Shown piece after piece: positions 2,295-30,503 of a stretch of 64,000 bases of DNA. Each line of letters opens with the position of its first letter. Positions within the stretch are counted from its first letter, which is position 1. Below the pieces are notes generated by a model. That model did not search any database and was not told the DNA's origin. It saw only the letters and a program-made list of their open reading frames with translations. Position numbers and translations under genes: made by a program. Location of the stretch: the IMG/VR virus record IMGVR_UViG_3300028591_000004, positions 86,781 to 150,780 of that record. One strand, given 5' to 3'. Origin of the DNA: a virus (lineage: Duplodnaviria > Caudoviricetes).

Positions 2295-2295
2295 A

Positions 2296-2640: not shown

Positions 2641-2653
2641 GGAGGATTAATGA

Positions 2654-3040
2654 ATGGCTGATGAAATAAAAAATACCCAAACAGGCATAGAACTTCTTGA
2701 TGAATGGACTGCCCGCCTGGGGTTAAAGGACTGGCTGGTAACACTCTGCGACAATTGCAACCCGGAAGATATGGTTCTTGATAATTCTGATGGATGTGTA
2801 AGCTACGAAGAGACAACAAGAGCTGCAAAAATCCAGATCGTTAATCCGGGAAAAAGACAGGGCGGATTAAGGCCTTTCAATTACGAAGAAACGTTGGTTC
2901 ATGAATTGCTTCATATTAAATTATGTTTACTTGAAAGAGGAGAAAACTGGGAGAATAAACTTCAACTAAGGCTTCTCCATCAGTATATTGACGATCTTGC
3001 CAGGGCGCTGGTAGATGCAAAAAGGACTGAAAACAAATGA
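2654..3040 (+). CDS. HExxH zinc metallopeptidase-like protein
   Basis: EETLVHELLH motif; RBS AGGAGG. Confidence 0.65.
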   Translation: MADEIKNTQTGIELLDEWTARLGLKDWLVTLCDNCNPEDMVLDNSDGCVSYEETTRAAKIQIVNPGKRQGGLRPFNYEETLVHELLHIKLCLLERGENWENKLQLRLLHQYIDDLARALVDAKRTENK

Positions 3041-3570
3041 AGAAATTAATTCTGATGCTGATTTTGATCCTGTCAGCATCTTTTTGTTATGCGGAAACTG
3101 AATGTTGGATCTTATGTCAGCCTGACTCGTATGTAAATGTTCGTCCAAACTCAAACAAGAAAGGTCAGGCTGAAGGGTATCTTCTTTGTGGAGATAAAGC
3201 GGCAACAGAAAACGCAACAAGAAACGGATATCTGTTTCTCACGCAAGTTTCTACTGAAAGAGGAGAAGGATGGGTTAATTCAGGATATGTCGTTTATTCC
3301 AAACCGGTTTATCTGAATAAAAAAGTAAACATCTGTTCTAAGGGACGAGTCGCCTGCCGGAGAGCAATCGGTGGCAGCAGACGATGCTGGGCAAAAGACG
3401 GGGATACAGTGACTGTTTACTATGTCTCAGACGAATGGAGTATTACAAATAAAGGTTTCATTAAAACAGAATATCTTGGAGTGAGTTACGATGTTTGTTC
3501 GAGATTCCTGGCATCAGGATCACATAACGGAGAACCAGAAGGTCTATATTTCGAAGATGATGAAAGATAA
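3037..3570 (+). CDS. Secreted protein with tandem SH3b-like domains
   Basis: Signal peptide (MKK + hydrophobic + CYA); YVNVR..GWVNSGYV and GFIKTEYL SH3b-like motifs. Confidence 0.65.
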   Translation: MKKLILMLILILSASFCYAETECWILCQPDSYVNVRPNSNKKGQAEGYLLCGDKAATENATRNGYLFLTQVSTERGEGWVNSGYVVYSKPVYLNKKVNICSKGRVACRRAIGGSRRCWAKDGDTVTVYYVSDEWSITNKGFIKTEYLGVSYDVCSRFLASGSHNGEPEGLYFEDDER

Positions 3571-3648
3571 CCCAGAACTACCACCGTTCACGGGAAAGAC
3601 AAAAATAGATGCGGCTCGTTATATATCAATGTACAGAAAGGCAAACAA

Positions 3649-4050
3649 ATGCAGATCGTTCAGTTAAGTATGTTTGATGACCCGCTCGAATGGATAGACC
3701 AATGTTTATTGTATGGGTCCGGATATGAAAACGGAAAGCTTAGAATTTATGCAGCTGCGGCAAAATTAAATAAAAAAGAATTCAACGAGTTTCTGAAAAA
3801 CGAATACGGGATTGGCGGCCGATCCATTGACGACGGATTTATGGATTACAACGGCAAAGGGATCTCATTAAAAAGATTCAAAAGCAACTATCAGGAATTC
3901 CATCCTTGGGCATCTGTTGCCAAACGAATTTTGCACTTAATTAATACCGAAAACTACCTAACAGACAAGGAAAAAATGAGATTCAAATCTGTTTGCGATA
4001 TGCATAATGGACAAATACCCATGCCTAGAGCAAGACTGAATTTTGAATAA
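3649..4050 (+). CDS. Hypothetical protein resembling a domain of large mobile-element helicase/methylase proteins
   Basis: GSGYENGKLRIY and FLKNEYGIGGRS motifs. Confidence 0.5.
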   Translation: MQIVQLSMFDDPLEWIDQCLLYGSGYENGKLRIYAAAAKLNKKEFNEFLKNEYGIGGRSIDDGFMDYNGKGISLKRFKSNYQEFHPWASVAKRILHLINTENYLTDKEKMRFKSVCDMHNGQIPMPRARLNFE

Positions 4051-4090
4051 AAAACAGCTTTATCAAAAGAAAAAGAAAGAAGGGAACAAA

Positions 4091-4597
4091 ATGAAATTTT
4101 CTTACAAAAAAGCCGATATTACGACAACCGAAACAAAGAGCGTAAAGCTTTCTCCTCCGTGGATTACTTATGTGAAATACATTAAGGCACTGTTTGAAAA
4201 TGATCCTCAGATTGTTATCGATTACTCGGAAGGCGATTATGTCCTTACGCTGATTGTAAATGGGATCGAAAAGTATCAAGCTATTTCTACTTTACTGCCT
4301 AACAAAAAGGAATTTGGCAACGTGGTCTTAACGATCAATGTGGTACAATCTCCTAATGAGCTTACCGATGAAGAACTTTTCAGGAATGCATTTAACGGTA
4401 ACGATGTTCTGTCTGATTTTAAAAGCTTTGATACCCCGTTTGGACCGCAGAATTACGCTGTTTTCAAGAAAGAAGTCGTTCAGTTCTATGATGACAATAT
4501 GGGAGACATTAATGGTCTGAAGTCAACTCTCTATGAGGAGATTGCCAGAGAAGTGTTTGGCGAAGCTTCTGTCCATTTCTGCACAAGTATGGAATGA
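4091..4597 (+). CDS. Hypothetical phage protein
   Basis: ATG at 4091 after purine-rich RBS; long ORF. Confidence 0.65.
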   Translation: MKFSYKKADITTTETKSVKLSPPWITYVKYIKALFENDPQIVIDYSEGDYVLTLIVNGIEKYQAISTLLPNKKEFGNVVLTINVVQSPNELTDEELFRNAFNGNDVLSDFKSFDTPFGPQNYAVFKKEVVQFYDDNMGDINGLKSTLYEEIAREVFGEASVHFCTSME

Positions 4598-4603
4598 CAA
4601 AAG

Positions 4604-4632
4604 AGAGGGGGAGCCATAAAGGCTCCCCCTCT
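4604..4632 (+). terminator. GC-rich hairpin (terminator or processing stem)
   Basis: AGAGGGGGAGCC-ATAAA-GGCTCCCCCTCT, 12-bp perfect stem right after a stop; weak U tail. Confidence 0.55.
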
Positions 4633-4648
4633 TATAATAGGAAGAAAC

Positions 4649-5458
4649 ATGAAAGAAAAAGTTCTTGAATGTGGTATTTGCGGGGTATCTTCTGAGAAAA
4701 AGATAATAAAATACTGCGGGAAAACCCAATGCAATTTGTGCAGTAAACATTACGCACAGATTTACAGATATGGAAAAATCACAGATGCAACACCGGCTAC
4801 AATTCAGGATAAAAATCAATATGTCTTACACGACGAATATGCGGAAATGATCTTAGTCGATGGCCGAAATAATTATGTTGCTACAGCAGTGATTGATCTC
4901 GAGGATGTAGAGAAATGCAAGCCTTATAAATGGGCTTTTGTAAATCGGTATGTTATATCAAGGATTCACGGAAAGAATGTTCGCTTGCACAGGTTTTTAT
5001 TAGATTATTACGGGGATAAAGTAATTGATCACATAGATCGCAATCCGTTAAATAATCGTAGAAGCAATATGAGGATTGTGGAAATAACAATTAACAACTG
5101 CAATCGTGAAGCCAAGAACATAAGATGCTCAGATAACGGGAAATATTCTGTTGAACTCAGAAGATTCGGGAAAAGATATACAAGCAGAAGATTTGACACA
5201 ATGGAAGAGGCACTGGAAGAAAAGAATAAAATAATTAAAAAGTTCGAGAATGAAATAGATAGTCATATTAAAGAATATCAACTGAAAAAAGGTATTACAA
5301 TGACTGGAGTTTCATTAGTGCCCTCAGGTAGATGGAAAGCAAACTTCTGGAGAAATAACAAATGTCATTATGTGGGAACTTATGATACAAAAGAAGAAGC
5401 GTATGAAGCAAGAATGAAAGCACTGAGAATTTACAATCAAAAGAAACAAGCTGGATGA
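4649..5458 (+). CDS. HNH homing endonuclease with AP2-like DNA-binding domains
   Basis: RLHRFL..IDHIDRNPLNNRRSNMR HNH motif; GRWKA..YVGTYDTKEEAYEAR AP2 motif. Confidence 0.85.
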   Translation: MKEKVLECGICGVSSEKKIIKYCGKTQCNLCSKHYAQIYRYGKITDATPATIQDKNQYVLHDEYAEMILVDGRNNYVATAVIDLEDVEKCKPYKWAFVNRYVISRIHGKNVRLHRFLLDYYGDKVIDHIDRNPLNNRRSNMRIVEITINNCNREAKNIRCSDNGKYSVELRRFGKRYTSRRFDTMEEALEEKNKIIKKFENEIDSHIKEYQLKKGITMTGVSLVPSGRWKANFWRNNKCHYVGTYDTKEEAYEARMKALRIYNQKKQAG

Positions 5459-5499
5459 TTATACAAATATGATTATCTTCTGTCTTTGCTTTAAAGGAA

Positions 5500-5985
5500 T
5501 TGTTTAAATTGAAAATGAAAAAGATTTTAGTTTACACTGATGGCTCCTGCTTCGGTAACCCAGGAAAAGGAGGGTACGCAGCAATAATTAGAAATGGAAA
5601 TAAATGTCAGACAATAACTGGAAGCGTACCCTGGTCAACAAATAATCGCATGGAACTCACAGCTGTAATTGAAGGATTGTCTGCTGTTCCTTACGGATCG
5701 GCAGTTTCAGTTTTCACTGACAGCGGCTACATTGAGCGTGCTTTTAACGAAGGTCGTGTAGATATTTGGATGAGTAATGGCTGGCGAAGGATTAGAACAG
5801 GTGAGCCAGTGCAAAATGCAGACAGATTCTTAGTATTGTGCGAACTGATTCAAAGCAAAAATCTTAATGTTGAATTCATAAAATTAAAAGCTCACGCAAT
5901 CAACTATTACAACAACATGGCAGATTATTTTGCACGTAAAGCTGCTAAAAACCAGATAGAGAGGCATTCATTTTATGACAATTGA
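5500..5985 (+). CDS. rnhA: Ribonuclease HI
   Basis: YTDGSCFGNPGKGG, TNNRMEL, TDS, VQNAD, KAH, NMAD motifs. Confidence 0.92.
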   Translation: MFKLKMKKILVYTDGSCFGNPGKGGYAAIIRNGNKCQTITGSVPWSTNNRMELTAVIEGLSAVPYGSAVSVFTDSGYIERAFNEGRVDIWMSNGWRRIRTGEPVQNADRFLVLCELIQSKNLNVEFIKLKAHAINYYNNMADYFARKAAKNQIERHSFYDN

Positions 5986-6237: not shown

Positions 6238-7332
6238 ATGGGGAAACCAAAATCCAGAGGAAATCACACTGGATCGGTTTATAAACGCAAAAATACAGGT
6301 ACTTGGACAGCTCAGATTGTTGTAGGCTGGAAGCAGTCCCAAGACGGATCTAAGCTTATTCCCATTAAGAAAACATTCGGCGGCTTTCAAACAAAGAAAG
6401 AAGCACTTGAAGCATTAAACAGACTCCTCAACGGAGAGTCTGTTGAATATGACAATATATATCTCCATGAAGTATTTGATCTTTGGAAGAAGTCATATGA
6501 GAATAGAGTTAAACCTAAAACGTTCAAAGGATACGAGCAGGCATATAAACACTTTTCCGATCTCCAATTTCGTAGAATAAATTCTATTACAGCAGCAGAT
6601 CTTCAATCCTGTATGGATCAATGTCCGGCGGGGAAACGAACTCATCAAATGATGAAGGTAACCGCCGGACTGATCTGGGCTTATGCCTTAAGCGCTAACA
6701 TCGTCAAAAAAGATATTACAGAGAATCTGTACATCGGGAAACACCAGACGACAACAAGAGAACCTCTTACGCCAAATGATATAAAACTGATTAAGGAATC
6801 AATCGGGCAGCTTCGCTACGCAGAGTATATCTTTTGTTTATGTTATCTCGGTTTCAGACCTGGAGAATTTCTGGAAATAAAAAAAGATCAGGTAATGTCT
6901 GAGGAAATTGACAAGGAGATTGTGTACTACATTGTTGAAGGGAAGAAAACTCAGGCTGGCATTAACAGAAAAGTTGTAATACCAAAGCAGATTCTTCCAT
7001 ACGTATTAGACAGATTGTTTATTCCCGGCACGGAATATTTGTTCCCATTCTACTATTTCACAAAGAATAATGGAACGCTAATCGAATTGAGACAAATGAA
7101 AGTAAACTATTTCGAAGAATCTGTTTTTAAAAAGATTACGTCTCAACTTGGAATAGAAGGGAAGGTCCCATATTCTGCAAGGCATTCCTATGCGGATAAA
7201 TTAAAACATGCGGACGGAGACGTGAGAGATAAAGCCGCGCTGATTGGTCACTCTGATTACTCGTTTACAAGGATGCAATATCAGAGCAGCCCACTCGAAG
7301 ATTTGAAAACTGTAACAGATTCAATCGAGTAA
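6238..7332 (+). CDS. int: Tyrosine integrase
   Basis: N-terminal arm-binding region (RGNHTGSVYKR..W), GFRPGE, GKKT, YSARH, IGH, C-terminal Y. Confidence 0.92.
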   Translation: MGKPKSRGNHTGSVYKRKNTGTWTAQIVVGWKQSQDGSKLIPIKKTFGGFQTKKEALEALNRLLNGESVEYDNIYLHEVFDLWKKSYENRVKPKTFKGYEQAYKHFSDLQFRRINSITAADLQSCMDQCPAGKRTHQMMKVTAGLIWAYALSANIVKKDITENLYIGKHQTTTREPLTPNDIKLIKESIGQLRYAEYIFCLCYLGFRPGEFLEIKKDQVMSEEIDKEIVYYIVEGKKTQAGINRKVVIPKQILPYVLDRLFIPGTEYLFPFYYFTKNNGTLIELRQMKVNYFEESVFKKITSQLGIEGKVPYSARHSYADKLKHADGDVRDKAALIGHSDYSFTRMQYQSSPLEDLKTVTDSIE

Positions 7333-8150: not shown

Positions 8151-8257
8151 ATGCGGTGGCGGAATAGGTAAACGCTATCCGATAAGGTTTGCGGCTCTTG
8201 CGTTGCAAGGCTTCGAGATACTTGCAAACCATGTGAGGTGCAAATCCTCACCCGCAT
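8151..8257 (+). ncRNA. Anticodon-less tRNA-like RNA, copy A
   Basis: ATGCGG/CCGCAT acceptor; TG-GCG-GAATAGGTAAA-CGC D arm; GTGAGG-TGCAAAT-CCTCAC T arm. Confidence 0.8.
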
Positions 8258-8385
8258 TTTAATACTCAAGGAGATAAACATAATGAATACATGTGATAAA
8301 TGTCCATGCATTGGAAACAGTTTTTGTTATATTGAAAACGGAGAACCAAAGCCAGATAAATGTCTGCTTATGAATGGAGGCCCTA

Positions 8386-8733
8386 ATGAAAAAGCGAACA
8401 TACAAACGATTACAGAATCGATTGTACAGAGAAATCAAACGAAGACTGATTCTTGAACAAATTCTTGAACGAACACGGCCTCTAAAGGCAGAAATATTCA
8501 AATCGTACCAGCAGCATATCGATACTATCAAGATCAAAAGAGATGTTCCGCTCGAGATAATTGAGAAAAACAAAGAAGCGTTAGCTTATTTTAAAGAAGA
8601 ACTTGCACAAACAATGAGCAGGCAGTTGTTAGCAGATGGTTATATATCATTTAATACCGAAGTATTAAATTACAATTCCGGCCCAATATTTGAAATTGCA
8701 GCATTATTGAACGTTATAAAACAAAAGGACTGA
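8386..8733 (+). CDS. Hypothetical protein
   Basis: RBS GGAGG then ATG at 8386. Confidence 0.6.
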   Translation: MKKRTYKRLQNRLYREIKRRLILEQILERTRPLKAEIFKSYQQHIDTIKIKRDVPLEIIEKNKEALAYFKEELAQTMSRQLLADGYISFNTEVLNYNSGPIFEIAALLNVIKQKD

Positions 8734-8956
8734 TGCAAATAAAACGTGGGCTGTATCGTAAATTAAAGAAAGGCAAATGTACAGGATGCGATCATCCTGC
8801 TTACGCGCCAAGTAAAAATGTTAATCCATACAGAGCTTGTCGAAAATGCTGGAAGGACTCAACCAAAAGAAAAGATAAATATCCAAGCTTCCTGCGCTGT
8901 GAATGACAACGCATTTTATATAGGAAGAAATTTTTTATTTCAGGAGGACTCATAAT

Positions 8957-9538
8957 ATGAATATGGGTAATTGGAATGTCAACGTTAACACAAAGGGCTT
9001 GCCTCAGAAAGTTGCTTCTGCAATGTCTTCTCTGGGTGATACCATCATGGGAGCTCAATACGAAATGATTGCTTATCTTGGTTCTCAAATCGTAAATGGA
9101 ACAAACCATGCAGTCTTGGCAAAACAGACAATCGTGACTGGCAGAGATACTGAAAACATAGTTCTGTTGATTTTTAATGAAAAGCCCAACGATCCTGAAG
9201 CCAGCCTTGTTTCTATTGAACGAGTAGTAGAAAGCGGATCTCCTATGGGAGGTACAAAGGTAGACGTACATATTAATATTCCTGCTGATGCTCAGGCTGA
9301 GTGGAATGATGCGTTTATGGGATTTGTCGGCTCCGATATTGAACCTTTCGCATTGCTTGGAACTCAGATCGTCAAGGGCGTGAACTACATCTTTGCGGCT
9401 GAAATGTCTCCTCTGACAACAGAACCAAAGAAGGAAGCTGTTCTGGTCATTGTCAATGGACTGACTAAGCGTGTTTCTTTCGTTGATATTCTCAGCAACA
9501 AACATCAATCTGGCCTTGGGTATGCCTTCACCTGGTAA
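8957..9538 (+). CDS. Tandem two-domain protein with cystatin-like QxVxG motifs
   Basis: Internal duplication: LGSQIVNGTNH and LGTQIVKGVNY; RBS AGGAGG. Confidence 0.55.
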   Translation: MNMGNWNVNVNTKGLPQKVASAMSSLGDTIMGAQYEMIAYLGSQIVNGTNHAVLAKQTIVTGRDTENIVLLIFNEKPNDPEASLVSIERVVESGSPMGGTKVDVHINIPADAQAEWNDAFMGFVGSDIEPFALLGTQIVKGVNYIFAAEMSPLTTEPKKEAVLVIVNGLTKRVSFVDILSNKHQSGLGYAFTW

Positions 9539-9543
9539 TATTT

Positions 9544-9563
9544 AGGGGCTTCGGCCCCTTTTT
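9544..9563 (+). terminator. Rho-independent terminator
   Basis: AGGGGC-TTCG-GCCCCT-TTTT. Confidence 0.75.
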
Positions 9564-9564
9564 A

Positions 9565-9682
9565 TCGCATCGTAGTTTAAAGCAAATAGGGACGCCGAAA
9601 GCTGATATATATTTCAGACGTGAGATATTGATCAGGGAAAAACACCGACGGGAAGATGAGAGTTCGAGTCTCTCCGATGCGA
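9565..9682 (+). ncRNA. tRNA-like RNA F with D-loop insertion and no anticodon arm
   Basis: TCGCATCG/CGATGCGA 8-bp acceptor; TA-GTTTAA...GGAAAAAC D-arm halves; GAGAG-TTCGAGT-CTCTC canonical T arm. Confidence 0.72.
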
Positions 9683-9706
9683 CTATTAAATCTAAGGAGA
9701 AAAATA

Positions 9707-10015
9707 ATGAAGCTAGAAGAAATTATAAAAGGATTAGAAATTGAAAAAGAATGTGTAAGCAGAGACTGCAATAGAGACTGTGCTAATTGCGATATTGTGC
9801 AAGAAAAGGATTGGCTGTTGGATGTGTATCGATCCGCAATCAATACACTTAAAGAGCAAAATAAAGCCCTGAAGTTGATGGCTTTTCAATATTGCACGAT
9901 GGGATTCGGCAATGATATTACTTTTCATAATCGTTGTATGACTGCCGGAGAACATGCTTTTAAAACGTTAGGAATTGAAAACGGACAAAAGGTACCAGAA
10001 GACTGGATTGATTAA
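9707..10015 (+). CDS. Cys-rich hypothetical protein (IIKGLE-type N-terminus)
   Basis: RBS AAGGAG; MKLEEIIKGLE..C..C..CxxC..LKEQ. Confidence 0.65.
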   Translation: MKLEEIIKGLEIEKECVSRDCNRDCANCDIVQEKDWLLDVYRSAINTLKEQNKALKLMAFQYCTMGFGNDITFHNRCMTAGEHAFKTLGIENGQKVPEDWID

Positions 10016-10026
10016 GGAGCCATGAA

Positions 10027-10341
10027 ATGAAGGTTGGAGATTACATAGGTGGTTTATATCCAACAGAAAAAGACGGAAAACGTTTCTGGCGATTATGTGA
10101 TTCGAAAATCACAAAGATAGTCCAGAACAGCCGCGGTACAAAAGTTTATTCAAAGCGATTCTATCCGTTAGAGATTGAAGAAATTGAAGATGCTACAAAA
10201 ACTATGACAGAAGCAAAAGGTTGGATTAATACAAGAGATGTAGTTGAACTAACTCCGGAACTTAGATTGAAATGTGAGCGCTGGGTTGAGTGGGCAAATA
10301 ACAACCCGGATAAAGCTGTTGGTTTGATTAACGAAGGATAG
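10027..10341 (+). CDS. Hypothetical protein
   Basis: RBS AAGGAG; operon spacing. Confidence 0.6.
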   Translation: MKVGDYIGGLYPTEKDGKRFWRLCDSKITKIVQNSRGTKVYSKRFYPLEIEEIEDATKTMTEAKGWINTRDVVELTPELRLKCERWVEWANNNPDKAVGLINEG

Positions 10342-10353
10342 GAGAGAAATTAT

Positions 10354-10968
10354 ATGAGTTGGTGGACACACATCAAGGGAGTTGTTGAAGTCGACGTTCG
10401 TGGTCGTACACAGGCCGAGATTCGATATGTACTGGAATCGGTACTTGATCATCTGCCTCGGGTTACGGGGTCAGAAGGCGATATGAATGTTTATATTACA
10501 CAGGAAGCTGGACACAACAGTTCCAGCTCTTGCGATGAATTCGGCCTCCACACCAATAACCTGAAAGATATGTATGGATATAAATCACAGGAAAATGGAT
10601 GGCTTCAAACTCAAAGCCAATATATGTTGACGGTGGAAGGTGACTTACGTGATCGTGAATTCGAACAGACCAAACGTGAGTTCATGAAATGGTTATGCCG
10701 ACTGGCTAAAAGAATACGCATAGACGCTATTGTTATGAAGCTGTGGGCATACGACCAATCTATTGTGATTTCCGACGCCTCACCGTACGACAATATGTAT
10801 GAATGGCAAGATGGAGAGAAGCGGTGGACGGATTATTTAATGTGGGAACGAGATCCCATTAGCTACTGGCCTTTAAAACTGGCTGACAAATATTTCGATG
10901 ACAGATATATCAAACAAGAATTAAAACGACGCATTGATTGGAATGAAAGCTGTACAGGAGAAGAATGA
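10354..10968 (+). CDS. Hypothetical phage protein
   Basis: 204-aa ORF with RBS AGGAG. Confidence 0.7.
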   Translation: MSWWTHIKGVVEVDVRGRTQAEIRYVLESVLDHLPRVTGSEGDMNVYITQEAGHNSSSSCDEFGLHTNNLKDMYGYKSQENGWLQTQSQYMLTVEGDLRDREFEQTKREFMKWLCRLAKRIRIDAIVMKLWAYDQSIVISDASPYDNMYEWQDGEKRWTDYLMWERDPISYWPLKLADKYFDDRYIKQELKRRIDWNESCTGEE

Positions 10969-10971
10969 TGC

Positions 10972-11205
10972 ATGAATGAAGCAGGATATCGCCGCCGTCA
11001 TGAAAGAGTAGAACGCAAATGGAAGAGGTTGAAACCTAAAGCAAAACATTGTCCAAACTGCCGTTGCCATTCTATTGGATTAAATGATTTTTATTTTCGT
11101 AAATTTAAAAGATTCTTTCTTGAATGTGAAAATTGTCATTGGTGTGGGAAAAGTTATCCAACAATTAGAATGGCAATAAGAAGCTGGAATAAGGAGAGAG
11201 CATGA
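10972..11205 (+). CDS. Lar-like Zn-ribbon protein
   Basis: HCPNC..ECENC..AIRSWNK. Confidence 0.55.
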   Translation: MNEAGYRRRHERVERKWKRLKPKAKHCPNCRCHSIGLNDFYFRKFKRFFLECENCHWCGKSYPTIRMAIRSWNKERA

Positions 11206-11588
11206 TTGAATACACGTTAAAATTAAACAGTCAACAGGTTGCCAATATTCTTAAGGCGATTGACTTGTTGATGCGAATCAAAATAAATCAACCCGAAGAA
11301 ATCAGCCGGGATCTTCTGGAGGGAATGTATGACCGCATCGGTGTTGATGAGGTTTGCAGGCGTCGTGATAAAGCAAATGAATATCTCCGTTTGGCTTTTC
11401 TGGAAATCTTTCCGTCCTGGGATGAGGTAAACAAAGACGATGAATGGTATAGCCTTTACAACATATTACAGGCATTGAGATACCAACGACATCTGGCAGA
11501 ATTTCCAAATAGTAAAGGCGTTGATGCTTATCCTCCGATGCAATTTGGAGGGGAGCCAATTCCTGAATGTACATGGGAGGACAAATAA
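11202..11588 (+). CDS. Hypothetical protein
   Basis: ATGA overlap, RBS AAGGAG. Confidence 0.65.
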   Translation: MIEYTLKLNSQQVANILKAIDLLMRIKINQPEEISRDLLEGMYDRIGVDEVCRRRDKANEYLRLAFLEIFPSWDEVNKDDEWYSLYNILQALRYQRHLAEFPNSKGVDAYPPMQFGGEPIPECTWEDK

Positions 11589-11589
11589 T

Positions 11590-11778
11590 ATGACGTGGGA
11601 AGAGCATAAAAAGAAGACAACCCCTCTTGAATATATTGGACTCAAGGAAACCGACATTGAATGCCCTAACTGTGGCAAGAAAATTTACAAGCGCACTGAT
11701 ATAGTTCTGACTTCGTATCCTCCGACTTATAGGTACGAATGTAAATCTTGTGACTGGTATGGATTTGCAAACACTTAA
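11590..11778 (+). CDS. Zn-ribbon protein
   Basis: ECPNCG..YECKSC; RBS GGAGG. Confidence 0.6.
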   Translation: MTWEEHKKKTTPLEYIGLKETDIECPNCGKKIYKRTDIVLTSYPPTYRYECKSCDWYGFANT

Positions 11779-12137
11779 AGGAGAGCAAAATGACGAATTT
11801 TGAATATTTTTGTAACGGTGATACTGAAGCCGAAGTAATGGAGCAAGAATGGCGTGAGCAACAAAGGCAGAGAGAATACGCCGCTCAAGTGGAATACGAA
11901 CGGCAGATGATGGAAGCTTACGACGCCTATTGCGCACAAGAGGAATATTATGACCAAGAGTGATTTGGATTGGTTCTGGAAAGACCCACACAACTACGAA
12001 ACTGATTATATCGTAGGGACGATCACAGATAATGATCTTATTCAAACAAATGCGTTGGTTGAAATTGCGAAATGTCTCCATGGAATCATGCAACAGCTCG
12101 CAGAAATGAATCGTTATTTACCGCCGGAAGAGTAATC

Positions 12138-12398
12138 ATGAAGGAAAGACTCTTAGATAAGCTTAAACGCGAATTCCGTGAATGGAGAATTCGGCAGCTG
12201 AATCGCATTATCCAGAAAGCCGTAGAGAAGAAAGATGATTTAAGCTATCAAACGTTCATGATTTACACATGGGCACTGGACGAAACAACAGACTATCACC
12301 TGATTGCTGAGAGAAGCTATCCGGATCATAGGATCTACGGAATGGAAACAACATGGTATAAGGAGAAACAAGATGACAGGAATCCTGATGTCAATTAA
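12138..12398 (+). CDS. Hypothetical protein
   Basis: Operon spacing; ATG at 12138. Confidence 0.5.
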   Translation: MKERLLDKLKREFREWRIRQLNRIIQKAVEKKDDLSYQTFMIYTWALDETTDYHLIAERSYPDHRIYGMETTWYKEKQDDRNPDVN

Positions 12399-12825
12399 GC
12401 CTGAATGGTGCAAGAAAATCATTACGGGTGAAAAGACTATTGAGGTGCGGAAAACCAAGCCGGAACAGATACGTTTACCATTCCCTGTATATGTCTATGC
12501 AACCTTCGGTGGTGAAAATTGGTTTCGCTTTGGAGAGCATATGTCTGGACATGTGATTGGTCGGTTTATATGCGATGATATCAAATATTATTCCATCCCG
12601 TATCCGGCATGGAACACGGAAACAGATCCGGAACTGATCGAGAAGTCATGCGTGAACTATACCAGGCTTCATAACTATGCTGAACCGCAGGGATGTGTAT
12701 ACGGCTGGCATATAAAAGATTTTGAATTGTATGATCAGCCGTTGCCGGTTGGTTTTTTCCTGGATAGCAAAGGGATGAACTTCAAACGTGCCCCGCAGTC
12801 ATGGGGGTATGCAATCAAATGTTAA
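12373..12825 (+). CDS. ASCH/PUA-domain protein
   Basis: LMSIKPEWCKKIITGEKTIEVRK, VIGRF, YGWHI, RAPQSW. Confidence 0.85.
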   Translation: MTGILMSIKPEWCKKIITGEKTIEVRKTKPEQIRLPFPVYVYATFGGENWFRFGEHMSGHVIGRFICDDIKYYSIPYPAWNTETDPELIEKSCVNYTRLHNYAEPQGCVYGWHIKDFELYDQPLPVGFFLDSKGMNFKRAPQSWGYAIKC

Positions 12826-12961
12826 GCACAAAAATATTAAAAGCATATTACCATGTAAGATTAATTGTTTTGAATATGGAGTTGTGGTTCTTAAGAGGCT
12901 TGCGCAAAGTCATTAGAAAGATAATCAATCTTACTGAACGATATTGTCAAAGGAGAAAGAA

Positions 12962-13339
12962 ATGCCAAATTACGTGATTGATCCTCAGGTTTTTTATTGG
13001 ATGAATGTTTTTGGAATTTTACAGACAGTTTTAGCAGTATTTGGCGGAGCATGTGTAATAGCATTCTTCGGCTTAGCGAGCGGATGGGTATACAATTCGT
13101 GCGAAGTCAAAAAAGGTTACGATAGCAATTTGTTTTACCTGAAAGCATGTAAAAGATGGGCCATTGTAACAGGAATAATCGGTTTTGTTCTTGTCACAGC
13201 GGCGATTTTTATTCCCGGAAGAACAACGAGTATTGAAATGATGATCGCGAAGGCTGCTACGTTTGATAACGTTAATTGGACAGTTCAGCAAGTTAAAGAA
13301 GTCGTAGATTATATTGTTCAGGCGATTAAAGGCATATAG
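12962..13339 (+). CDS. Two-TM membrane protein
   Basis: Two hydrophobic segments; RBS AAGGAG. Confidence 0.65.
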   Translation: MPNYVIDPQVFYWMNVFGILQTVLAVFGGACVIAFFGLASGWVYNSCEVKKGYDSNLFYLKACKRWAIVTGIIGFVLVTAAIFIPGRTTSIEMMIAKAATFDNVNWTVQQVKEVVDYIVQAIKGI

Positions 13340-13845
13340 TGAAAAGAGGACGATTTAATGGTTATGTTTGTAATCGGATTGTTGATTGGTGTAGTAGTTA
13401 CTGTTTTCACTATAGCTGTAACAACAGCGAACAACGATAGAAAACAATAACCGATAAAGGAGAAAAAATGCGAGACGAATGTCATGATGAAACAGGCATG
13501 ATTATCAAACCGTTTGAAAAATGCGAGCGGTGTTCAGATTTTCCATGCAGAGAGTTGTGCAGAGCGTTGCAAGCTATTATCGACGGGGAAAACTAACTTT
13601 AATAACACTAAATAACACCTTAAATACGGAGGTTAAACTATATGTCTAACAAGAAATTTCCAAGAGATTGCCCACATGATTGCCCACATTTTCATGCGTG
13701 GGATATGTCGGTCGATGATTGGACTTGTGTATGCGATTTGTTGCAAGTACAAATTGATGAATGCGACGAGGATTTCAAGTTTATGTATTGTCCACAAAAT
13801 AGCGAAACTTAAATAACACTTTAACTGATGTGGAAGGAAATTTAG

Positions 13846-14331
13846 ATGAAGGGCTTAATTATGATTGGCTATCAGGGAATCGGAAAGAGTTCTTGTGCCG
13901 GGAAAGAAAACTGCATCGATCTGGAAAGTGGAAGTTTCTGGATTGGAGATCATCGTGCAGAAGACTGGTATATCCCGTATTGCAATATTGCTTTGCACCT
14001 TGCTGATCAAGGATACACAGTGTTTACCAGCTCGCACAAAGTTGTTGTTGACTACCTGAAATCTGTTCCTTTGATGGAGAATATCGGGAAAGTTGTTGTG
14101 TTCTGTCCAGAAGGTAGATTCAAGAAAGAATGGATTGCCAGATTACAGGAACGGTACGACCGAACCGGATTAAATAAGGACTACAAAGCCTTGATGAATG
14201 CGAAAGACAGATTCACTGAAGATATCCATAATCTTGTGAATTGTGGGCTTCCTGTTTATCAACCGGGATGGTATGCGGATTATGATTTAATGGACTATGT
14301 TCATAAGGCAAGATATGACTGGTGTTATTAA
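13846..14331 (+). CDS. P-loop nucleotide-kinase-like protein
   Basis: IGYQGIGKSS Walker A; IDLES. Confidence 0.7.
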   Translation: MKGLIMIGYQGIGKSSCAGKENCIDLESGSFWIGDHRAEDWYIPYCNIALHLADQGYTVFTSSHKVVVDYLKSVPLMENIGKVVVFCPEGRFKKEWIARLQERYDRTGLNKDYKALMNAKDRFTEDIHNLVNCGLPVYQPGWYADYDLMDYVHKARYDWCY

Positions 14332-14972
14332 ACTGCAATCAGATTCAACAGAAAGGAACAACACATTATCAATGCTTAAGACCTTATGTAATGATTGTCA
14401 GTACCGAAAAGGAATCGAATGCACGGCTGGTTTTTGCTGTCCATATGATATAAGTTATTATCAAAATAAGCAGATGCTATACAACCGAAAAGAAAAAATA
14501 AACATATGGAACAACACAAATGGTAAAGCAAATCAATATTTTGTTTGTAAAGGCGAACGAGTTTTGTTTTGGATTCCAAATTGGATTGGTCGAATCTTAA
14601 AAAAATAAAATAATTGGAGGATTAACATGAAAACTTTATATGAATTTGAAACTGCGTTCCAGGAACTAATGGATACTGCTTTAAACATACTTTCTCCCAG
14701 CCAATTCGAACAGCTTAAAGATTCTGTCTCTATGATTCTCAACGATTATGAAGAATGAGATTGTTAAGATGGAAGAGCTTACGATTTCATTTGATAAGTT
14801 AATACATCCAGATTTGGAAGCCATAAAAAAGCGAGATGCTTTTCTGTCAGATGAACATATGGATGAAATAGACAAGCTTTTATTGGATAATATCCAAGAG
14901 ACAACAAGCCAAAAATAATGATATATATTTAACTTACATGATGACAATATTAATGTTTAGGGAGATCTGAAT

Positions 14973-15266
14973 TTGTCAAAAATCAAAAAAGCATCTCTTT
15001 TAATTGCGTTCATTGTTTTTTCTATTGTTTTATCGGGATGTGTTAAAACAACAGATTATAAAGGCATAGAACGTACAGTTGAATACGGGCTGGTTGAAAT
15101 CGAATCTGTAAGTGGAGATGGTCAGTTTACAGTATGCTATGACCCCACCACAATGGTTTGCTATATGAAAATATCGAGACTTTATGGAATAGGAATAAGT
15201 CCATATTACATCATTGGAGAAGATGGAAAACCGGAAATCGCTATATACGGAGTGAATTATCGATGA
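14973..15266 (+). CDS. Lipoprotein
   Basis: Basic N-terminus, hydrophobic stretch, LSGC lipobox. Confidence 0.65.
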   Translation: MSKIKKASLLIAFIVFSIVLSGCVKTTDYKGIERTVEYGLVEIESVSGDGQFTVCYDPTTMVCYMKISRLYGIGISPYYIIGEDGKPEIAIYGVNYR

Positions 15267-15475
15267 ACAAAAATCAAAGACGCAACGAGCTTATTGCAAG
15301 ACTTGCAGTTCTTATAGCTGATACAGAATGGTCTGAGATTGTAGATCTGTCACCAGAAGATGCTCGGGATATTTTTGAATTGTTGAAAGAACAAGCTGAA
15401 GCCGTTCGGTGCGAAAGCTGCAAATTGTCGGGAAGCTAATTTTGTGACTGACGGAATAAGTCGTGGAGTTTAAGT

Positions 15476-15721
15476 ATGACAAAGGAATATATTGTTGAAG
15501 TTTGTAACGATCTGGTGATAAATGCTTTTGACCGTTTTGAAAACGACTGGTCACCAGATGAATTGATTCGGTGTAAAGATTGTAAATACGGAACACCTAT
15601 TATGAAATATGGTGCAATACCACTTATTTTATGTCGAGGAACAGATCATGACTTGAATTGGTTTTGCGCCGACGGAAAACGCAAAGAAGCAGAGCCCGGG
15701 AAGGAAGCACAGCCAGAATGA
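15476..15721 (+). CDS. RCKDCKY...WFCADG family Cys protein
   Basis: Shares its C-terminal module with 21267-21566. Confidence 0.65.
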   Translation: MTKEYIVEVCNDLVINAFDRFENDWSPDELIRCKDCKYGTPIMKYGAIPLILCRGTDHDLNWFCADGKRKEAEPGKEAQPE

Positions 15722-15939
15722 GCAATTTGGAACATTTAGTTGAAAACGGATTGTGTCTTCTCAGCGAAGGAAAATCCTACAAAGAATGGCGCGATATAAT
15801 GCAGGACGACTGCAATTGGGAAAACAATGAAAATATAACCCTCGATAATCTTTGGGAAATTTGTCAATACGTCATATTTGTATGGGATGTATATAAATAG
15901 ACTATAGGTTTTAAAAAAGTAAAAGGGAACGTATCTTAA

Positions 15940-16107
15940 TTGATGCCGTGACGGAATAGGTAGACGGGTTAGCGGGAGATAGCCAGCTGGGCAGAAGTAG
16001 CGCTACTGTTCGAAGATAAGGGGCAAGCTCGGAAGAATGAGAAGCCCATGCGACCCGACATCTTGCTAAAGGCTATCATGAAAGGTGCAAATCCTTTCCG
16101 GCATCAA
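15940..16107 (+). ncRNA. Anticodon-less tRNA-like RNA, copy B
   Basis: TTGATGCCG/CGGCATCAA acceptor; TGACGGAATAGGTAGACG; GAAAGG-TGCAAAT-CCTTTC T arm (compensatory changes vs copy A). Confidence 0.82.
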
Positions 16108-16128
16108 ACTTAAATAACACATTAATTA

Positions 16129-16266
16129 ATGCGGTGACGGAAAAGGTAGACGTAACTATTGGGAAGATGTGCCCACGACAGCAGAGAAGCGTAATGCGGT
16201 GAAGTATGACCCCGTTCGGTAAACGACAAAAGGCGCATCATGTGAGGTGCAAATCCTCACCCGTAT
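16129..16266 (+). ncRNA. Anticodon-less tRNA-like RNA, copy C
   Basis: ATGCGG/CCGTAT; ACG-GAAAAGGTAGA-CGT D arm; GATGTGCC/GGCGCATC cargo stem; GTGAGG-TGCAAAT-CCTCAC. Confidence 0.8.
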
Positions 16267-16677
16267 AATATTACTTTAAATAGGAGTTTTCCATGGAAAC
16301 ATTAGCAATCATTCAAACCGTTTGTCTTGTGTGGATAGCCGCTGCGACAGTTATAACTGCTGTTAATTCGTTTTTTAAATAGCATATTGTAAGTTATGGT
16401 TGTTGCGACAGATGGGGAACGGGCAACGTAATTGGTGGGCGTCCATAACTTAAATAACACCTTAATCGGAGGAAAAAATGACAGTAGAAGAATTGATCTC
16501 GGCATTGATAGATATGCCAAAGAACGCAAAGGTGATTGTTGTTGAACCCTTTCTGCAAGGAGTAAATATTAAGAACGTTAAGAACGTAGCTATCAACGAT
16601 AATGAGCTCGGTAAAGGAAAAGTAAAAATATACACAGTTTAAATAACACTTTAAGCAATAAAATAAACGAGGAAAAA

Positions 16678-16920
16678 ATGACTGAGAAAACTAATAACGG
16701 ATGGAATAAATTCAAATGCTGGTTGTTTGGACATAAACTTACATGCTGTGGAGATATTTTAAAAAGATGCTCTACGTGCCACGAAAAAGGACGTGTCTAT
16801 CCAGACGCTTGTAATTCATGTAATCGACGAGCAGGATGCAAAGACGGAACCGATTTGTCCACTCGTAATTGCGGTATGAAAAAGTCTTATTTTGAAGCAG
16901 GAGGTTCACATGCCATGTAA
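16678..16920 (+). CDS. Cys-rich hypothetical protein
   Basis: CWLFGHK motif, several CxxC. Confidence 0.55.
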   Translation: MTEKTNNGWNKFKCWLFGHKLTCCGDILKRCSTCHEKGRVYPDACNSCNRRAGCKDGTDLSTRNCGMKKSYFEAGGSHAM

Positions 16921-17053
16921 AAGATGTGGATACGCAAAATATCGAATGATTCACTATAAAAATGGACATAGATGCTCATGTGTCAAATGCGGATATTGCA
17001 CTAAACTCAAAGAAACTCCTGAACTTGCTATTGAAGCGTGGAATCAAAGATGA
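16910..17053 (+). CDS. Small Lar-like Zn-ribbon protein (not in ORF track)
   Basis: RBS AGGAGG; MPCKRCG..CVKCG..AIEAWNQR. Confidence 0.6.
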   Translation: MPCKRCGYAKYRMIHYKNGHRCSCVKCGYCTKLKETPELAIEAWNQR

Positions 17054-17072
17054 TTTAAATAGGAGTGTTTAA

Positions 17073-17279
17073 ATGACTTTTAGACCTATCGCAAAAATCG
17101 TACAGAAATCTGACGAAGATGGATGGCATTGTAGTGATGTAATAGAATATCGTTGCCCGATATGTTATAAGATACTCAAAGGATACAAGAAACAAGATGG
17201 GTGTATAGATTGCAACATCTTCTTTAATTGGGGAGATCACGAACCAAAGATTGTTGTAACTAAAAATATAAGTTGGTAA
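17073..17279 (+). CDS. Zn-ribbon protein
   Basis: YRCPIC..GCIDC; RBS AGGAG. Confidence 0.6.
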   Translation: MTFRPIAKIVQKSDEDGWHCSDVIEYRCPICYKILKGYKKQDGCIDCNIFFNWGDHEPKIVVTKNISW

Positions 17280-17505
17280 ACTAACACATTCATTAAGAAC
17301 AAAAGGTGGATAAGATGAGCATAACACTTATCAGTTTAATAATTAGTTCTGGGGTTATCATCGTTAGTATTATCCTCTGTCGCATTGCGTCAGAGCTTCG
17401 GTCTATTGCGTATCACTTGGAGCAACTGGATCGGAAGCACTCTAAAGAGTACAAAATATGAAATTACTTAAATAACACTTTATTACGCAAAAGAGGAGTT
17501 TTATC

Positions 17506-17712
17506 ATGGAAACAAAGGACAAGCCAAACAAAGTGACTGCGACTTTGAAGATTGTTATCACGGGCGAGTTTTACGACGATGAAGCTTCAGAGGAAACCTT
17601 GCGATATTGCGCAGAACAAGCTCTCGAAGATGCCGGATTCGATGTTGAAGTATCTGTAATGCGTAATAATCGAATCCCGTTTTCAGCAAATAGCAATGTT
17701 CAATGGACATAA
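17506..17712 (+). CDS. Hypothetical protein
   Basis: RBS GAGGAG; bounded by boundary motifs on both sides. Confidence 0.6.
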   Translation: METKDKPNKVTATLKIVITGEFYDDEASEETLRYCAEQALEDAGFDVEVSVMRNNRIPFSANSNVQWT

Positions 17713-17929
17713 CTTAAATAGGAGCTTTACGATGTTTAAAAAACTGATTGCCAAATGGAAATACAGACGATTCTGCCGAATGAATCGTTGCCCTGATTGT
17801 ATCTATCACGACTTCGTATTCGAAGGATGCGTTTTCCGTGGTAATCGTTGTCGTCATCCTGCGGCGAAACTGTGAATTAAATAACGCCTTGATACACATT
17901 GGAGCACATTGATGTGGGAGGTAGAGAGC

Positions 17930-18139
17930 ATGGACAATTTGAAGCCGTGCCCGTTTTGTGGACATAGAAAGCCCGTCCTGATAACACGCGGAAGGCTGGA
18001 CGGATGGCGTGATTATTTCTATGTCCTCTGTGATTATAATGACGGTGGATGTGGAGCAAGTGGCCAATGGTGCCATTACCCAGACGAAGCCGTCGAAGCA
18101 TGGAATAAAAGAACGTTAACAGACGCTGATACGCAATAA
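17930..18139 (+). CDS. Lar-family restriction-alleviation-like protein
   Basis: LKPCPFCG..V.C..GCGA..EAVEAWNKR. Confidence 0.75.
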   Translation: MDNLKPCPFCGHRKPVLITRGRLDGWRDYFYVLCDYNDGGCGASGQWCHYPDEAVEAWNKRTLTDADTQ

Positions 18140-18174
18140 AAAAGAGGCTAACACTTTAAGAACGGAGGAATAAA

Positions 18175-18384
18175 ATGTCTTTTGCAGATGCTGTTTTAAC
18201 CATGAAACAGGGAAAGAGAGTTCGTATGCCGTGGTGGGGAGGATATTGGTACATCGCAGACGGCACACTCAGAATACATGATATTAACGACAACGACATT
18301 AACGCATTTAGCGAAGAAAACAGAGAACCGCTTTACACTTTGTTGTTTATGACTGCAAACTGCTGGGAATTAGTTCCAGATTAA
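18175..18384 (+). CDS. DUF2829 / Tad2-like protein
   Basis: MSF..A...MKQGKRVR...W N-terminus and A..WE.V C-terminus. Confidence 0.6.
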   Translation: MSFADAVLTMKQGKRVRMPWWGGYWYIADGTLRIHDINDNDINAFSEENREPLYTLLFMTANCWELVPD

Positions 18385-18792
18385 AGGAGATGAACATCCT
18401 GAAAGTTTCAGACGTTATAAACAGAATAAACGATATAGAAAAATGCAGACGCTATCTGGAAGAATGGATGGATGGAAAAATTATGGATCAGAACCAGATT
18501 GATGCTATTGCGGACGATATTGATACGCATTTGGAAGCATATGCAGAGATGCTCATGAACAAAGAAATAAAATAACAAATTAAGAACGGAAAGAAGCATC
18601 GCTATGGTTATTAAAATAGCTGAAGACGGAACCGTTACATGGAAGTTTTATAAAAAATCATATAAGAAAGCCAGATGGAAAAGGCTCGGGGCACGACTGC
18701 TTGTAGACTTTCAAAAGGAAGCAGGAGCTCATGGTTTGATATTCGTTATTTGGAATCGATAAAATAAAACGTTAACTCAGAGAGGGATAGAC

Positions 18793-19005
18793 ATGAGCAA
18801 GTGGATGGAAAAGCTTACGCGCAAGACAGATAAATATAATCCGCGCAAGCGAAAGCAATATAAAAAATCCAGATATCGTAAACAAGCAAGAAAGTTTGAG
18901 ATATGGTGCGATAAAGAAGAGGCCGAAGCAGAAGAGTTTGAACGTCTGCATCCAAACTGGGTGGCCGAGCTTGATGAGATGCTCACTAAACAACATGTTA
19001 AATAA
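18793..19005 (+). CDS. Basic hypothetical protein
   Basis: RBS GAGGG; Lys/Arg-rich. Confidence 0.5.
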   Translation: MSKWMEKLTRKTDKYNPRKRKQYKKSRYRKQARKFEIWCDKEEAEAEEFERLHPNWVAELDEMLTKQHVK

Positions 19006-19016
19006 GGAATTGAAAA

Positions 19017-19265
19017 ATGGATATTCAAACTAATGTAGATATACTAATGCAAGCAGATTTTAAAGATTGGCATTATTATGAAATGCAACAAAAGAAAATG
19101 GAGCTTATCTCCCTTTTAAAAGAACGTGAAAAAGAAAATGACCAAGATGTTCCTTTAATCTCTCTTCGGGGTTATGCGTTGACGCATGAAGACGTTACGC
19201 GCATGGCAGAAGAAGTAGAAGATGAATTAAACAAAACAAGAAAAGAACTCGGATATAAAGAATAG
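19017..19265 (+). CDS. Hypothetical protein
   Basis: RBS AAGGA; operon spacing. Confidence 0.55.
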   Translation: MDIQTNVDILMQADFKDWHYYEMQQKKMELISLLKEREKENDQDVPLISLRGYALTHEDVTRMAEEVEDELNKTRKELGYKE

Positions 19266-19302
19266 CTGAAACAATAATTCAGCATGAAAAATCTAATTAC
19301 AA

Positions 19303-19480
19303 TGCTGTGGCGGAATAGGTAGACGTAAATACAAATTCACAGGGATGCAGCAGTAGACGGTTGGCGGGCATGCGAGGGTTGAGACTACGCGCCGAAAAAG
19401 CGGCTCCAGTCGTAGAGGACGTAAAAACTCGGAACTGTGAAGAATAAAGCCCGTATGCGAGGTGCAAATCCTCACCAGCA
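19303..19480 (+). ncRNA. Anticodon-less tRNA-like RNA, copy D
   Basis: TGCTG/CAGCA acceptor (compensatory); GCG-GAATAGGTAGA-CGT; GCGAGG-TGCAAAT-CCTCAC. Confidence 0.8.
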
Positions 19481-19500
19481 CAACATAAGTTCACATTGAT

Positions 19501-19691
19501 ATGCGGTGGCGGAATAGATTGCCATCATTCCTGCGGAGAGTAAATAAGGGCGTGTCTCTCATCCAAGTACACCTGATCACAGGGGCGCAGGTCACGGCTA
19601 AAGTAGACGCTAGGCAGAGCCGAACACGAGACAGATGGAGCAGCCGGAAGGTACACAGTCTGTCATGTGAGGTGCAAATCCTCACCCGCAT
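19501..19691 (+). ncRNA. Anticodon-less tRNA-like RNA, copy E, with 85-nt D-loop insertion
   Basis: 5' 17 nt and a 3' 32-nt block identical to copy A; GGAATAG and GTAGACGC separated by 19518-19602. Confidence 0.8.
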
Positions 19692-19811
19692 TTTATATGT
19701 AAACATCTTAGAAGAAATAAAATTGAGAAGTTACGCTGACAAGAAACGTGCAGAAAATGCACGTTCCAGTTGTTCGGAAATTCCGAACACTTGAAAGGCT
19801 GTGAATATTAA

Positions 19812-30491: not shown

Positions 30492-30503
30492 AGTAATTCC
30501 TCC

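Follow-up and report, generated by a model that had tools for sequence, protein, structure and literature searches.

A family of anticodon-less phage RNAs, very probably derived from tRNA-Leu, with diverse structured inserts

To our knowledge, the tRNA-like stable RNAs of phages, which have been known since the T4/T5 era, have never been explained. RNAC and RNAD of T4 (the species 1 and 2 RNAs) are encoded beside the T4 tRNA genes, and we know of no modular insert family that has been reported for them. They are still referred to as "RNAs of yet unknown functions" (PMC9697503); T5 RNA1 and RNA2 are entered in GenBank AY543070 as misc_RNA 30501-30644 and 32959-33083, with the remark "tRNA-like stable RNA with unknown functions"; and in the engineered tRNA scaffold of Ponchon and Dardel, the acceptor, T, and D arms are retained and a helix-closed insert replaces the anticodon arm, the resulting chimera being handled and protected by the cell as a tRNA (PMC3753655). 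Here we analyze a family of tRNA-like RNAs encoded in a 64,000-nt stretch of DNA from a rumen phage (hereafter, the window; positions 86,781-150,780 of IMG/VR record IMGVR_UViG_3300028591_000004), which is the right-hand part of a complete 150,780-bp virus with terminal repeats, whose DNA came from a sheep gut sample. Five copies in the window (A to E) and a sixth elsewhere in the same genome (G) share a constant tRNA-Leu-type frame, and we are highly confident that they belong to a real, structured RNA family derived from tRNA-Leu. As the original prediction, which was made from the window's sequence, had supposed, neither Rfam 15 nor the literature that we searched describes the family, whose long-known analogues are T5 RNA1/RNA2 and T4 RNAC/RNAD.

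The likeness to T5 RNA1 and RNA2 lies in (i) phage genes located among tRNA genes, (ii) a tRNA shape, and (iii) a large insert that is kept in the stable RNA; T5 RNA1 also shares a Leu-type D arm, UGCCGGAAUUGGUAGACGG. However, T5 RNA1 keeps the anticodon stem and the CUUAAAA loop of tRNA-Leu(UAA), with a ~40-nt insert on its 5′ side, as well as a normal variable arm and a UUCAACU T loop. Further, R1, the covariance model built on the frame, gives T5 RNA1 only 20 bits (in its 5′ part) and the true tRNA-Leu of T5 18 bits, whereas frame-family members score 36-98 bits; the gene position, the D arm, and the presence of an insert are shared with T5 RNA1, but homology over the whole RNA is not. T4 RNAC and RNAD, which we liken to the family by description only, are also small stable phage RNAs, but come from a coliphage. 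The engineered scaffold has an arm layout that matches that of the family, but it is man-made on tRNA-Lys/tRNA-Met, with one insertion site and a 12-bp stack, whereas in the natural family the D loop offers a further site, the T loop contains G55, and the stack is longer. The tRNA-like domain of tmRNA and the bacterial Y RNA YrlA are likewise anticodon-less tRNA mimics joined to other structured domains. YrlA ends on a Ro-binding stem, and its acceptor end is closed. On the copies, Rfam yields no match to YrlA, ARAGORN and Rfam find no tmRNA, and there is neither a tag reading frame nor a G3-U70 pair.

The shared frame and its copies

The frame starts with a terminal stem and UG, continues with a 3-bp D stem built around GAAUAGGUAGA, a variable middle, and AU, and ends with a 6-bp stem that carries a UGCAAAU loop (the T arm) and with the second (3′) strand of the terminal stem. 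The D and T stems are separated by a single-stranded linker and a helix-closed insert (40-190 nt across the family). The five copies that the original prediction had placed in the window were found at their positions, on the + strand, each in a gap between + strand open reading frames (ORFs). Its tally nevertheless missed the sixth copy (C1:54473-54567, beyond the window, where the phage's tRNA-Leu(UAA) and tRNA-Ser genes flank it), which brings the whole genome to 6 forward and 0 reverse copies, and a different tRNA-like element, F (9566-9682), which is described below. The T-arm word GGTGCAAATCC occurs exactly 5 times, against 1.1 expected (0/100 shuffles reach 6 matches), and the D-arm word 4 times, against 0.38 expected; a chance origin of the repeated frame words is excluded. 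R1 finds all six copies at 34-91 bits (D and E partially), while the true tRNA-Leu scores 32 bits.

Copy A (8151-8257) comprises a terminal stem (8151-8156/8252-8257), U8-G9 (8157-8158), a D arm (8159-8175), an insert (8176-8230) with the closing helix GGTTTGCGG/TTGCAAACC, AU (8231-8232), and a T arm (8233-8251); its frame is recovered by the minimum-free-energy fold, it scores 90.6 bits with R1, and the ATG of the next ORF lies 27 nt downstream. Copy B (15942-16105; R1, 51.4 bits) has a 7-bp terminal stem (G15942-C16105), a Leu-type D arm, an insert that we term class B (15967-16076), and a T arm at 16080-16098. Copy C (16129-16266; R1, 60.8 bits), whose frame is also seen in the fold, begins 23 nt past the last paired base of B (C16105), and has an insert closed by GATGTGCC/GGCGCATC and a T arm at 16242-16260. 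Copy D (19302-19481; R1, 47.4 bits) carries a ~128-nt insert (19328-19455), closed by GCGGGC/GCCCGT, and a T arm at 19457-19475. Copy E (19501-19691; a partial R1 match of 36 bits) begins 20 nt past the terminal-stem end of D (A19480), and B-C and D-E form tandem pairs. The 5′ frame of E lies at 19501-19517, its T arm at 19667-19685, and the 3′ strand of its terminal stem at 19686-19691. While a contiguous D arm and a ~130-nt middle had been proposed for this copy, we found that an 85-nt insert (19518-19602), located between G18 and G19 of the D loop, splits GGAATAG from GTAGACGC; E therefore has two inserts, the other being a 54-nt anticodon-side insert (19611-19664) closed by GACAGA/TCTGTC. 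An ORF of 97 codons (19501-19794) that spans copy E is broken in homologs, and the copies are not protein genes.

The terminal stems are ATGCGG/CCGCAT in A and E, ATGCCG/CGGCAT in B, ATGCGG/CCGTAT with a G-U pair in C, and TGCTG/CAGCA in D; the T stems are GTGAGG/CCTCAC or, as in B, GAAAGG/CCTTTC. All of these stems pair as originally written, except the T stem of D (GCGAGG/CCTCAC), which contains one C-A mismatch, and each of the five middles is indeed closed by its own helix just before the AU.

Beyond this genome, the exact 17-nt T-arm word is present in >118 IMG/VR contigs among the matches listed, nearly all of which hold the same frame with different middles, and a descriptor search recovered at least 95 unique members, whose terminal stems come in 49 variants and whose T stems come in 14, each of them complementary. 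In a frame alignment of 92 distinct sequences, which was fitted to model R1 and with which independent descriptor counts agree, 96.8% of the cells pair, compared with 79.4% in shuffles, and pairing falls to 35-55% when the partners are slid by 1-3 columns. Moreover, both partners have changed in 13 of the 15 pairs (218 cells of this kind, where shuffles give 47), and the D stem covaries. Selection acts at the RNA level, rather than on a DNA repeat, a claim of the original prediction that the covariation of both the frame and the class-B insert (see below) strongly supports; the homologs retrieved with the model covary and do not show random decay. A contrary view would take the two halves of the frame as recombination or integration sites for DNA cassettes, with an RNA fold that is incidental. 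Such a DNA-level element would suit the clear cassette exchange described below, whose break points lie in conserved frame segments, but the compensatory changes keep RNA pairing, including G-U pairs, which are mismatches in the complementary strand; every copy is on the strand that is transcribed; and the tRNA tertiary-core bases are invariant. We regard this explanation as very improbable.

Among 20 diverse members, U8, A14, G18, G19, and G53-C61 are invariant or nearly so, and A15 is also present. The frame shares these bases with class II tRNA-Leu, and a helix abuts its T stem as a long variable arm does. The family D arm UGGCGGAAUAGGUAGACGC is one base off that of the phage's own tRNA-Leu(UAA), which therefore points to the descent of the frame from a class II tRNA-Leu, and the position of copy G next to this tRNA gene is a further pointer to a Leu origin. 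Unlike class II tRNA-Leu, however, the frame has no anticodon arm, no conserved A73, and no conserved CCA, its T stem is 6 bp long (the outer pair being G-C in 88 sequences and A-U in 2), and its T loop reads UGC rather than UUC, with G55 in place of U55. Compared with a canonical tRNA, the D arm and the tertiary-core bases are present, whereas an RF00005 score above the gathering threshold (29 bits), an anticodon arm, and a 5-bp T stem/UUC loop/12-bp stack are not. A 5-bp/7-nt anticodon arm is absent from the copies examined, and the sequence of A to E confirmed the original prediction that they have neither such an arm nor an encoded CCA. Likewise, no confident tRNA or Rfam call was obtained: ARAGORN reports none in the window, nor any tRNA on the copies when introns are allowed, Rfam 15 gives no match at gathering scores and none on A to E even at E<=10, and copy G gives no RF00005 match at E<=1.

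The lack of an anticodon arm also bears on whether the copies are interrupted tRNA genes, whose inserts would be introns removed by an endonuclease and ligase pathway to give a functional tRNA. An RNA ligase is encoded at 257-1312, and true tRNAs with anticodon-loop inserts are found at other phage loci, both of which would suit this idea. However, (i) removal of the insert leaves no anticodon stem or loop; (ii) in addition to the negative ARAGORN search with introns, Rfam gives no intron match at E<=10 that would indicate a group I catalytic core in the inserts, which have no flanking anticodon stem and, at 40-130 nt, are too short for group I; (iii) within a copy, no RNA contig skips the insert; (iv) single-copy members occur in 40-60 kb phages, and the only genes that recur in the sampled flanks are terminase, portal, helix-turn-helix (HTH), and Bro genes; and (v) T5 RNA1 is entered as a stable RNA that keeps its insert. 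The intron explanation is close to refuted.

At the ends of the frame, the terminal stem usually reaches at least 7 bp across the family, and not the 6 bp that had been proposed. The -1/+1 bases that flank the 6-bp stem pair in 61/80 members, against 38 in shuffles, and the -2/+2 bases pair more weakly (45 against 33 in shuffles), such that the stem measures 6 bp in 19 members, 7 bp in 26, 8 bp in 23, and 9 bp or more in 12. Together with the 6-bp T stem, it forms a coaxial stack of at least 13 bp. Beyond the stem, the first 3′ base left unpaired is A (48% of the members), T (33%), C (16%), or G (4%), a distribution near the composition of the flanks, and position -1 shows an enrichment of U (60%). 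Two of the 95 members encode CCA, which a close relative of those two has lost.

Bacterial leucyl-tRNA synthetase (LeuRS) needs neither the anticodon nor the variable arm, as known from work on minimalist tRNA-Leu, but requires A73. The family RNAs might accordingly be chargeable tRNA-Leu mimics, which would be leucylated by LeuRS and would sequester the enzyme or donate leucine outside the ribosome. The D arm, with its A14, A15, G18, and G19, fits such a role, and the U that precedes the T stem could form an A15-U48 pair. A discriminator A73 and an NCCA end at a fixed distance are nevertheless missing, as the distribution of 3′ bases and the rarity of encoded CCA attest; the terminal stem varies from 6 to 9 or more bp; G55 replaces U55; the acceptor/T stack measures 13 bp; and D-loop inserts part G18 from G19 in 13/95 members. 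The absence of a conserved discriminator base and of a fixed stem length argues against leucylation. By these features, the family RNAs do not look like amino-acid acceptors, and we consider a mimic of this kind improbable.

Structured inserts and their exchange

The class-B fold, which is based on 11 sequences, consists of a closing helix P1, extended by P1b, and a three-way junction with hairpins P2 and P3. In copy B, P1 pairs 15978-15984 with 16071-16077, and P2 pairs 15989-15994 with 16006-16011, below a palindromic apex at 15997-16006. A 4-bp pseudoknot connects NGGG of the 5′ linker with CCCN of the 3′ junction strand, which in copy B are CGGG (15973-15976) and CCCG (16054-16057), and the junction strands GAGAAGAAGG and AUGCGACCC...AUCU are invariant. 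Across the 11 sequences, 95.3% of the cells pair, whereas slid controls reach 31-40%, and 22 of the 41 pairs are compensatory. The module occurs only inside the frame, in 13/13 true matches from IMG/VR and 15/15 from metagenomes (28/28), the other class-B pattern matches all being without the module. The 6-nt word in the P2 loop is self-complementary in all three of its variants, namely AACGUU, AGCGCU (copy B), and GGUACC, in members such as L265 and L257. Pairing in cis does not explain why this palindrome is preserved through a complete change of sequence; a kissing-loop dimer is hinted at instead, and the P2 loop is, on three variants only, a possible dimerization site. If class-B dimers do form, they would amount to multimeric RNA assemblies, and the loop resembles a retroviral dimerization loop. 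As a general feature, a pseudoknot that pairs the linker with the inside of the insert found no support across the insert classes (mean z -0.5).

Comparison of the inserts with those of other members revealed an exchange of modules. The D-loop insert of copy E is 92% identical to the D-loop insert at L044:4491 and 84% identical to that of L098, and is also found in L297, L134, and L267; these relatives carry unrelated anticodon-side inserts. The anticodon-side insert of E is, in turn, 96% identical to that of L105, which has another D-loop insert, and 93% identical to that of L075, which has none. Inserts in the D loop, as in E, are present in about one in seven members (13/95). The insert of copy D is 97.7% identical over 128 nt (3 changes) to L262:6466-6593, whereas the terminal, D, and T stems differ, and the insert of copy C has 29 nt in common with L105:5090-5239. 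In these comparisons, the modules behave as units that recombine independently of one another and of the frame, like cassettes, and the inserts appear as conserved, functional-looking domains, not junk. Apparent matches of one module between the D-loop and the anticodon sites turned out to be parsing artifacts, and we make no claim of such an exchange. Rfam finds no known RNA family inside the inserts of the window and of 16 related loci, its matches elsewhere being only ordinary tRNAs and a cow-rumen-4 RNA.

Many members lie 10-30 nt ahead of a ribosome-binding site, and a terminator-like site is present within 90 nt downstream in only 3/81 members. Because of these few terminators of their own, the ribosome-binding sites just downstream, and the tandem pairs, the RNAs must be cut from longer transcripts. 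The same context, with copies between co-directional ORFs, would be expected of a pure processing signal, comparable to the plant mitochondrial t-elements, in which RNase P and RNase Z cuts set mRNA ends and the inserts are functionless. A signal of that kind, however, does not account for the conservation of the inserts from phage to phage, with their covariation, pseudoknot, and invariant junction strands, nor for the 3 changes in 128 nt of insert D within a frame that differs. Furthermore, the tandem pairs B-C and D-E and the copies in tRNA clusters would be superfluous for punctuation. The chance that the family serves as processing signals alone is, in our view, small.

A possible scaffold for RNA modules

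We tentatively favor, while giving it not quite an even chance, a natural tRNA-Leu-derived scaffold that carries working RNA modules, because the architecture of the engineered scaffold matches and T5 RNA1 provides a natural precedent. On this reading, the RNAs are non-decoding descendants of class II tRNA-Leu, with a constant frame that folds like the upper body and core of a tRNA, and with a helix-closed, structured module in place of the anticodon and variable arms and, in some members, a second module in the D loop. Their transcription would take place as part of phage operons, where they often stand in tandem or in tRNA arrays; their tRNA-like frame would lead to excision by host RNase P at the 5′ end and by the tRNA 3′-end machinery; and the frame would shield them from decay, as engineered tRNA scaffolds do. 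The modules would be working parts that act in trans on a protein, RNA, or ligand during infection, most plausibly in phage-host conflict, and would be swapped between frames by recombination in conserved frame segments. The original prediction had envisaged a scaffold that excises and protects its cargo; the architecture, the conserved inserts, the cassette exchange, and the restriction of class B to the frame agree with it, whereas processing and stability, like the binding partners of the modules, are what we infer.

In a sheep-gut metatranscriptome, half the words of the region are present, and frame-bearing contigs with other inserts reach depths of 197 and 39.5, compared with 2-6 for the phage's own pieces. 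Contigs from RNA libraries may contain DNA and show no ends, strand, or level, and the uncovered parts of the phage are uninformative; the depths are therefore a mere hint of abundance.

Several points weigh against the scaffold. The transcript data for the family are weak, since they consist of such RNA-library contigs, which can hold DNA. A terminal stem of 6 to 9 or more bp, in a stack of at least 13 bp (12 in tRNA), does not assure a precise, tRNA-like processing of the ends. RNase P stacks at the outer corner of the tRNA elbow, and members with D-loop inserts between G18 and G19, at this very corner, may be poor RNase P substrates. In addition, the search for antisense targets of the inserts in the phage genome gave nothing above chance, and clustering of 2,137 ORFs from 118 loci identified no conserved protein partner, with only the terminase, portal, HTH, and Bro genes recurring.

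The same clustering is of relevance to a different function, in which the RNAs would be decoys or inhibitors of a host tRNA-directed defense (a nuclease, a CCA-modifying toxin, or a tRNA sensor), with modules that tune or block the enzyme and a diversity that reflects an arms race. The phage has its own tRNAs (six ordinary tRNA genes in the genome) and an RNA ligase, as is typical of tRNA conflicts, several different copies occur per genome, with cassettes that turn over fast, and the Leu(UAA), Lys(UUU), and Arg(UCG) tRNAs of related arrays bear anticodon-loop hairpins, as in T5 RNA1. Yet the anticodon loop, which is the usual target, is missing from the frame, the 3′ end and the discriminator base are not conserved, the invariant junctions and the pseudoknot conserved across phages are left unexplained, and no defense or counter-defense gene is linked to the family in the 118 loci. 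The uncleavable tRNA decoy of the original prediction thus gained no specific support, there being no anticodon loop to mimic and no need for conserved inserts in a decoy, and we hold a decoy function to be unlikely.

A more far-reaching version of the scaffold, which we offer as a speculation and also rate as unlikely, is a tRNA-Leu chassis whose two docking sites, on the anticodon side and in the D loop, form a plug-in platform for aptamer-like modules, each neutralizing or hijacking a different host factor, with class B perhaps self-associating. On such a platform, the six-copy array would be an RNA toolkit comparable to a protein anti-defense island. If the frame is a natural scaffold for expression and stability, each insert class would be a new functional RNA domain awaiting a partner, and the tRNA scaffolds employed for producing RNA would have a natural precedent.

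Distribution, neighboring genes, and other tRNA-like elements

Members of the family are encoded by cultured phages, including Bacillus phi3T and SPbeta-like phages (downstream of a yonN-like HU gene; in phi3T, at ~50,190-50,326 of KY030782, on the complementary strand), Leuconostoc phage phiLM33_01 (beside tRNA-Trp), a Lactiplantibacillus phage, and many EFDG1-like Enterococcus phages; every member checked in the cultured phage records is unannotated. Relatives also sit in phage tRNA arrays. In a scan of bacterial genomes, ~30 of 120 matches were family members, mostly in Clostridia and Lactobacillales assemblies. The phenomenon is thus widespread, reaching from phages of the gut, the rumen, and fermented foods to model Bacillus phages and Clostridia prophages, and annotation pipelines currently miss these genes. 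The cultured phages (phi3T and SPbeta-like phages in B. subtilis, EFDG1-like phages in Enterococcus) offer genetic systems.

Another ~50 of the 120 bacterial matches were rejected as FMN riboswitches that share the T-loop hairpin, and many others as chance matches. FMN riboswitches of Clostridia and Bacteroides assemblies (L137, L139, L141, L142, and ~45 more loci) hold the exact hairpin GAGGUGCAAAUCCUCAC, which, being also present in this unrelated RNA, confounds pattern searches for the frame family.

A few members depart from the common form. The class-B member of metagenome contig L389 has a 16-nt T loop, UGACAGAAAUUCAAAU; even the T loop therefore tolerates insertion. Other T loops read UGAAAAU (L256 and L269) or UACAAAU (the E-type member of L075). 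About 6 nt downstream of members with a GAGCGG terminal stem (L102, L119, L015, L031, L035, L081, and L093), there is a conserved hairpin, GCCGCCCCGCAGTTGCAGGAGACGGGGGCGG, that is GC-rich and lacks a T run; in these small phages, the members lie near terminase and portal genes. One phage contig with >25 tRNA genes and two family members also encodes a cow-rumen-4 RNA (RF02948, 67.7 bits; L022:189-254).

Upstream of copy A in the window, the RNA ligase at 257-1312 (PF09414 with a PHA02142 OB domain) is followed by an HNH-AP2 homing-type endonuclease (4649-5458), an RNase H (5500-5985), and a tyrosine integrase (6238-7332); the ORFs that were scanned from 257 to 5985 showed no polynucleotide kinase domain. 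A 12-kb region gave no near-identical match among cultured phages, and the structural protein encoded at 62037-63983 no tblastn match. The spacers among tRNA-Ala, tRNA-Leu, and copy G (C1:54101-54302 and C1:54390-54472) contain several strong hairpins and no ORF, and Rfam has no match on them at E<=1.

Element F (9566-9682, + strand), which starts 7 nt past a terminator, is matched by RF00005 at 34.1 bits (E=4e-4). Its acceptor stem is 7 bp long, its T loop has the canonical sequence UUCGAGU, its D loop contains a 58-nt insert, and its anticodon arm is a mere stub; F is a different anticodon-less tRNA-like RNA, outside the UGCAAAU family. A T-arm search for its homologs in IMG/VR matched only ordinary tRNAs.

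Lastly, some phage tRNA arrays contain otherwise good tRNAs, namely Leu(UAA), Lys(UUU), and Arg(UCG), that bear 45-80-nt hairpin inserts in the anticodon loop, located at 32/33 or just 3′ of the anticodon (L103:4289-4420, L103:3003-3120, L032:5279-5402, and L032:4216-4366). T5 RNA1 (AY543070 30501-30644) is of the same build as these insert-bearing tRNAs.

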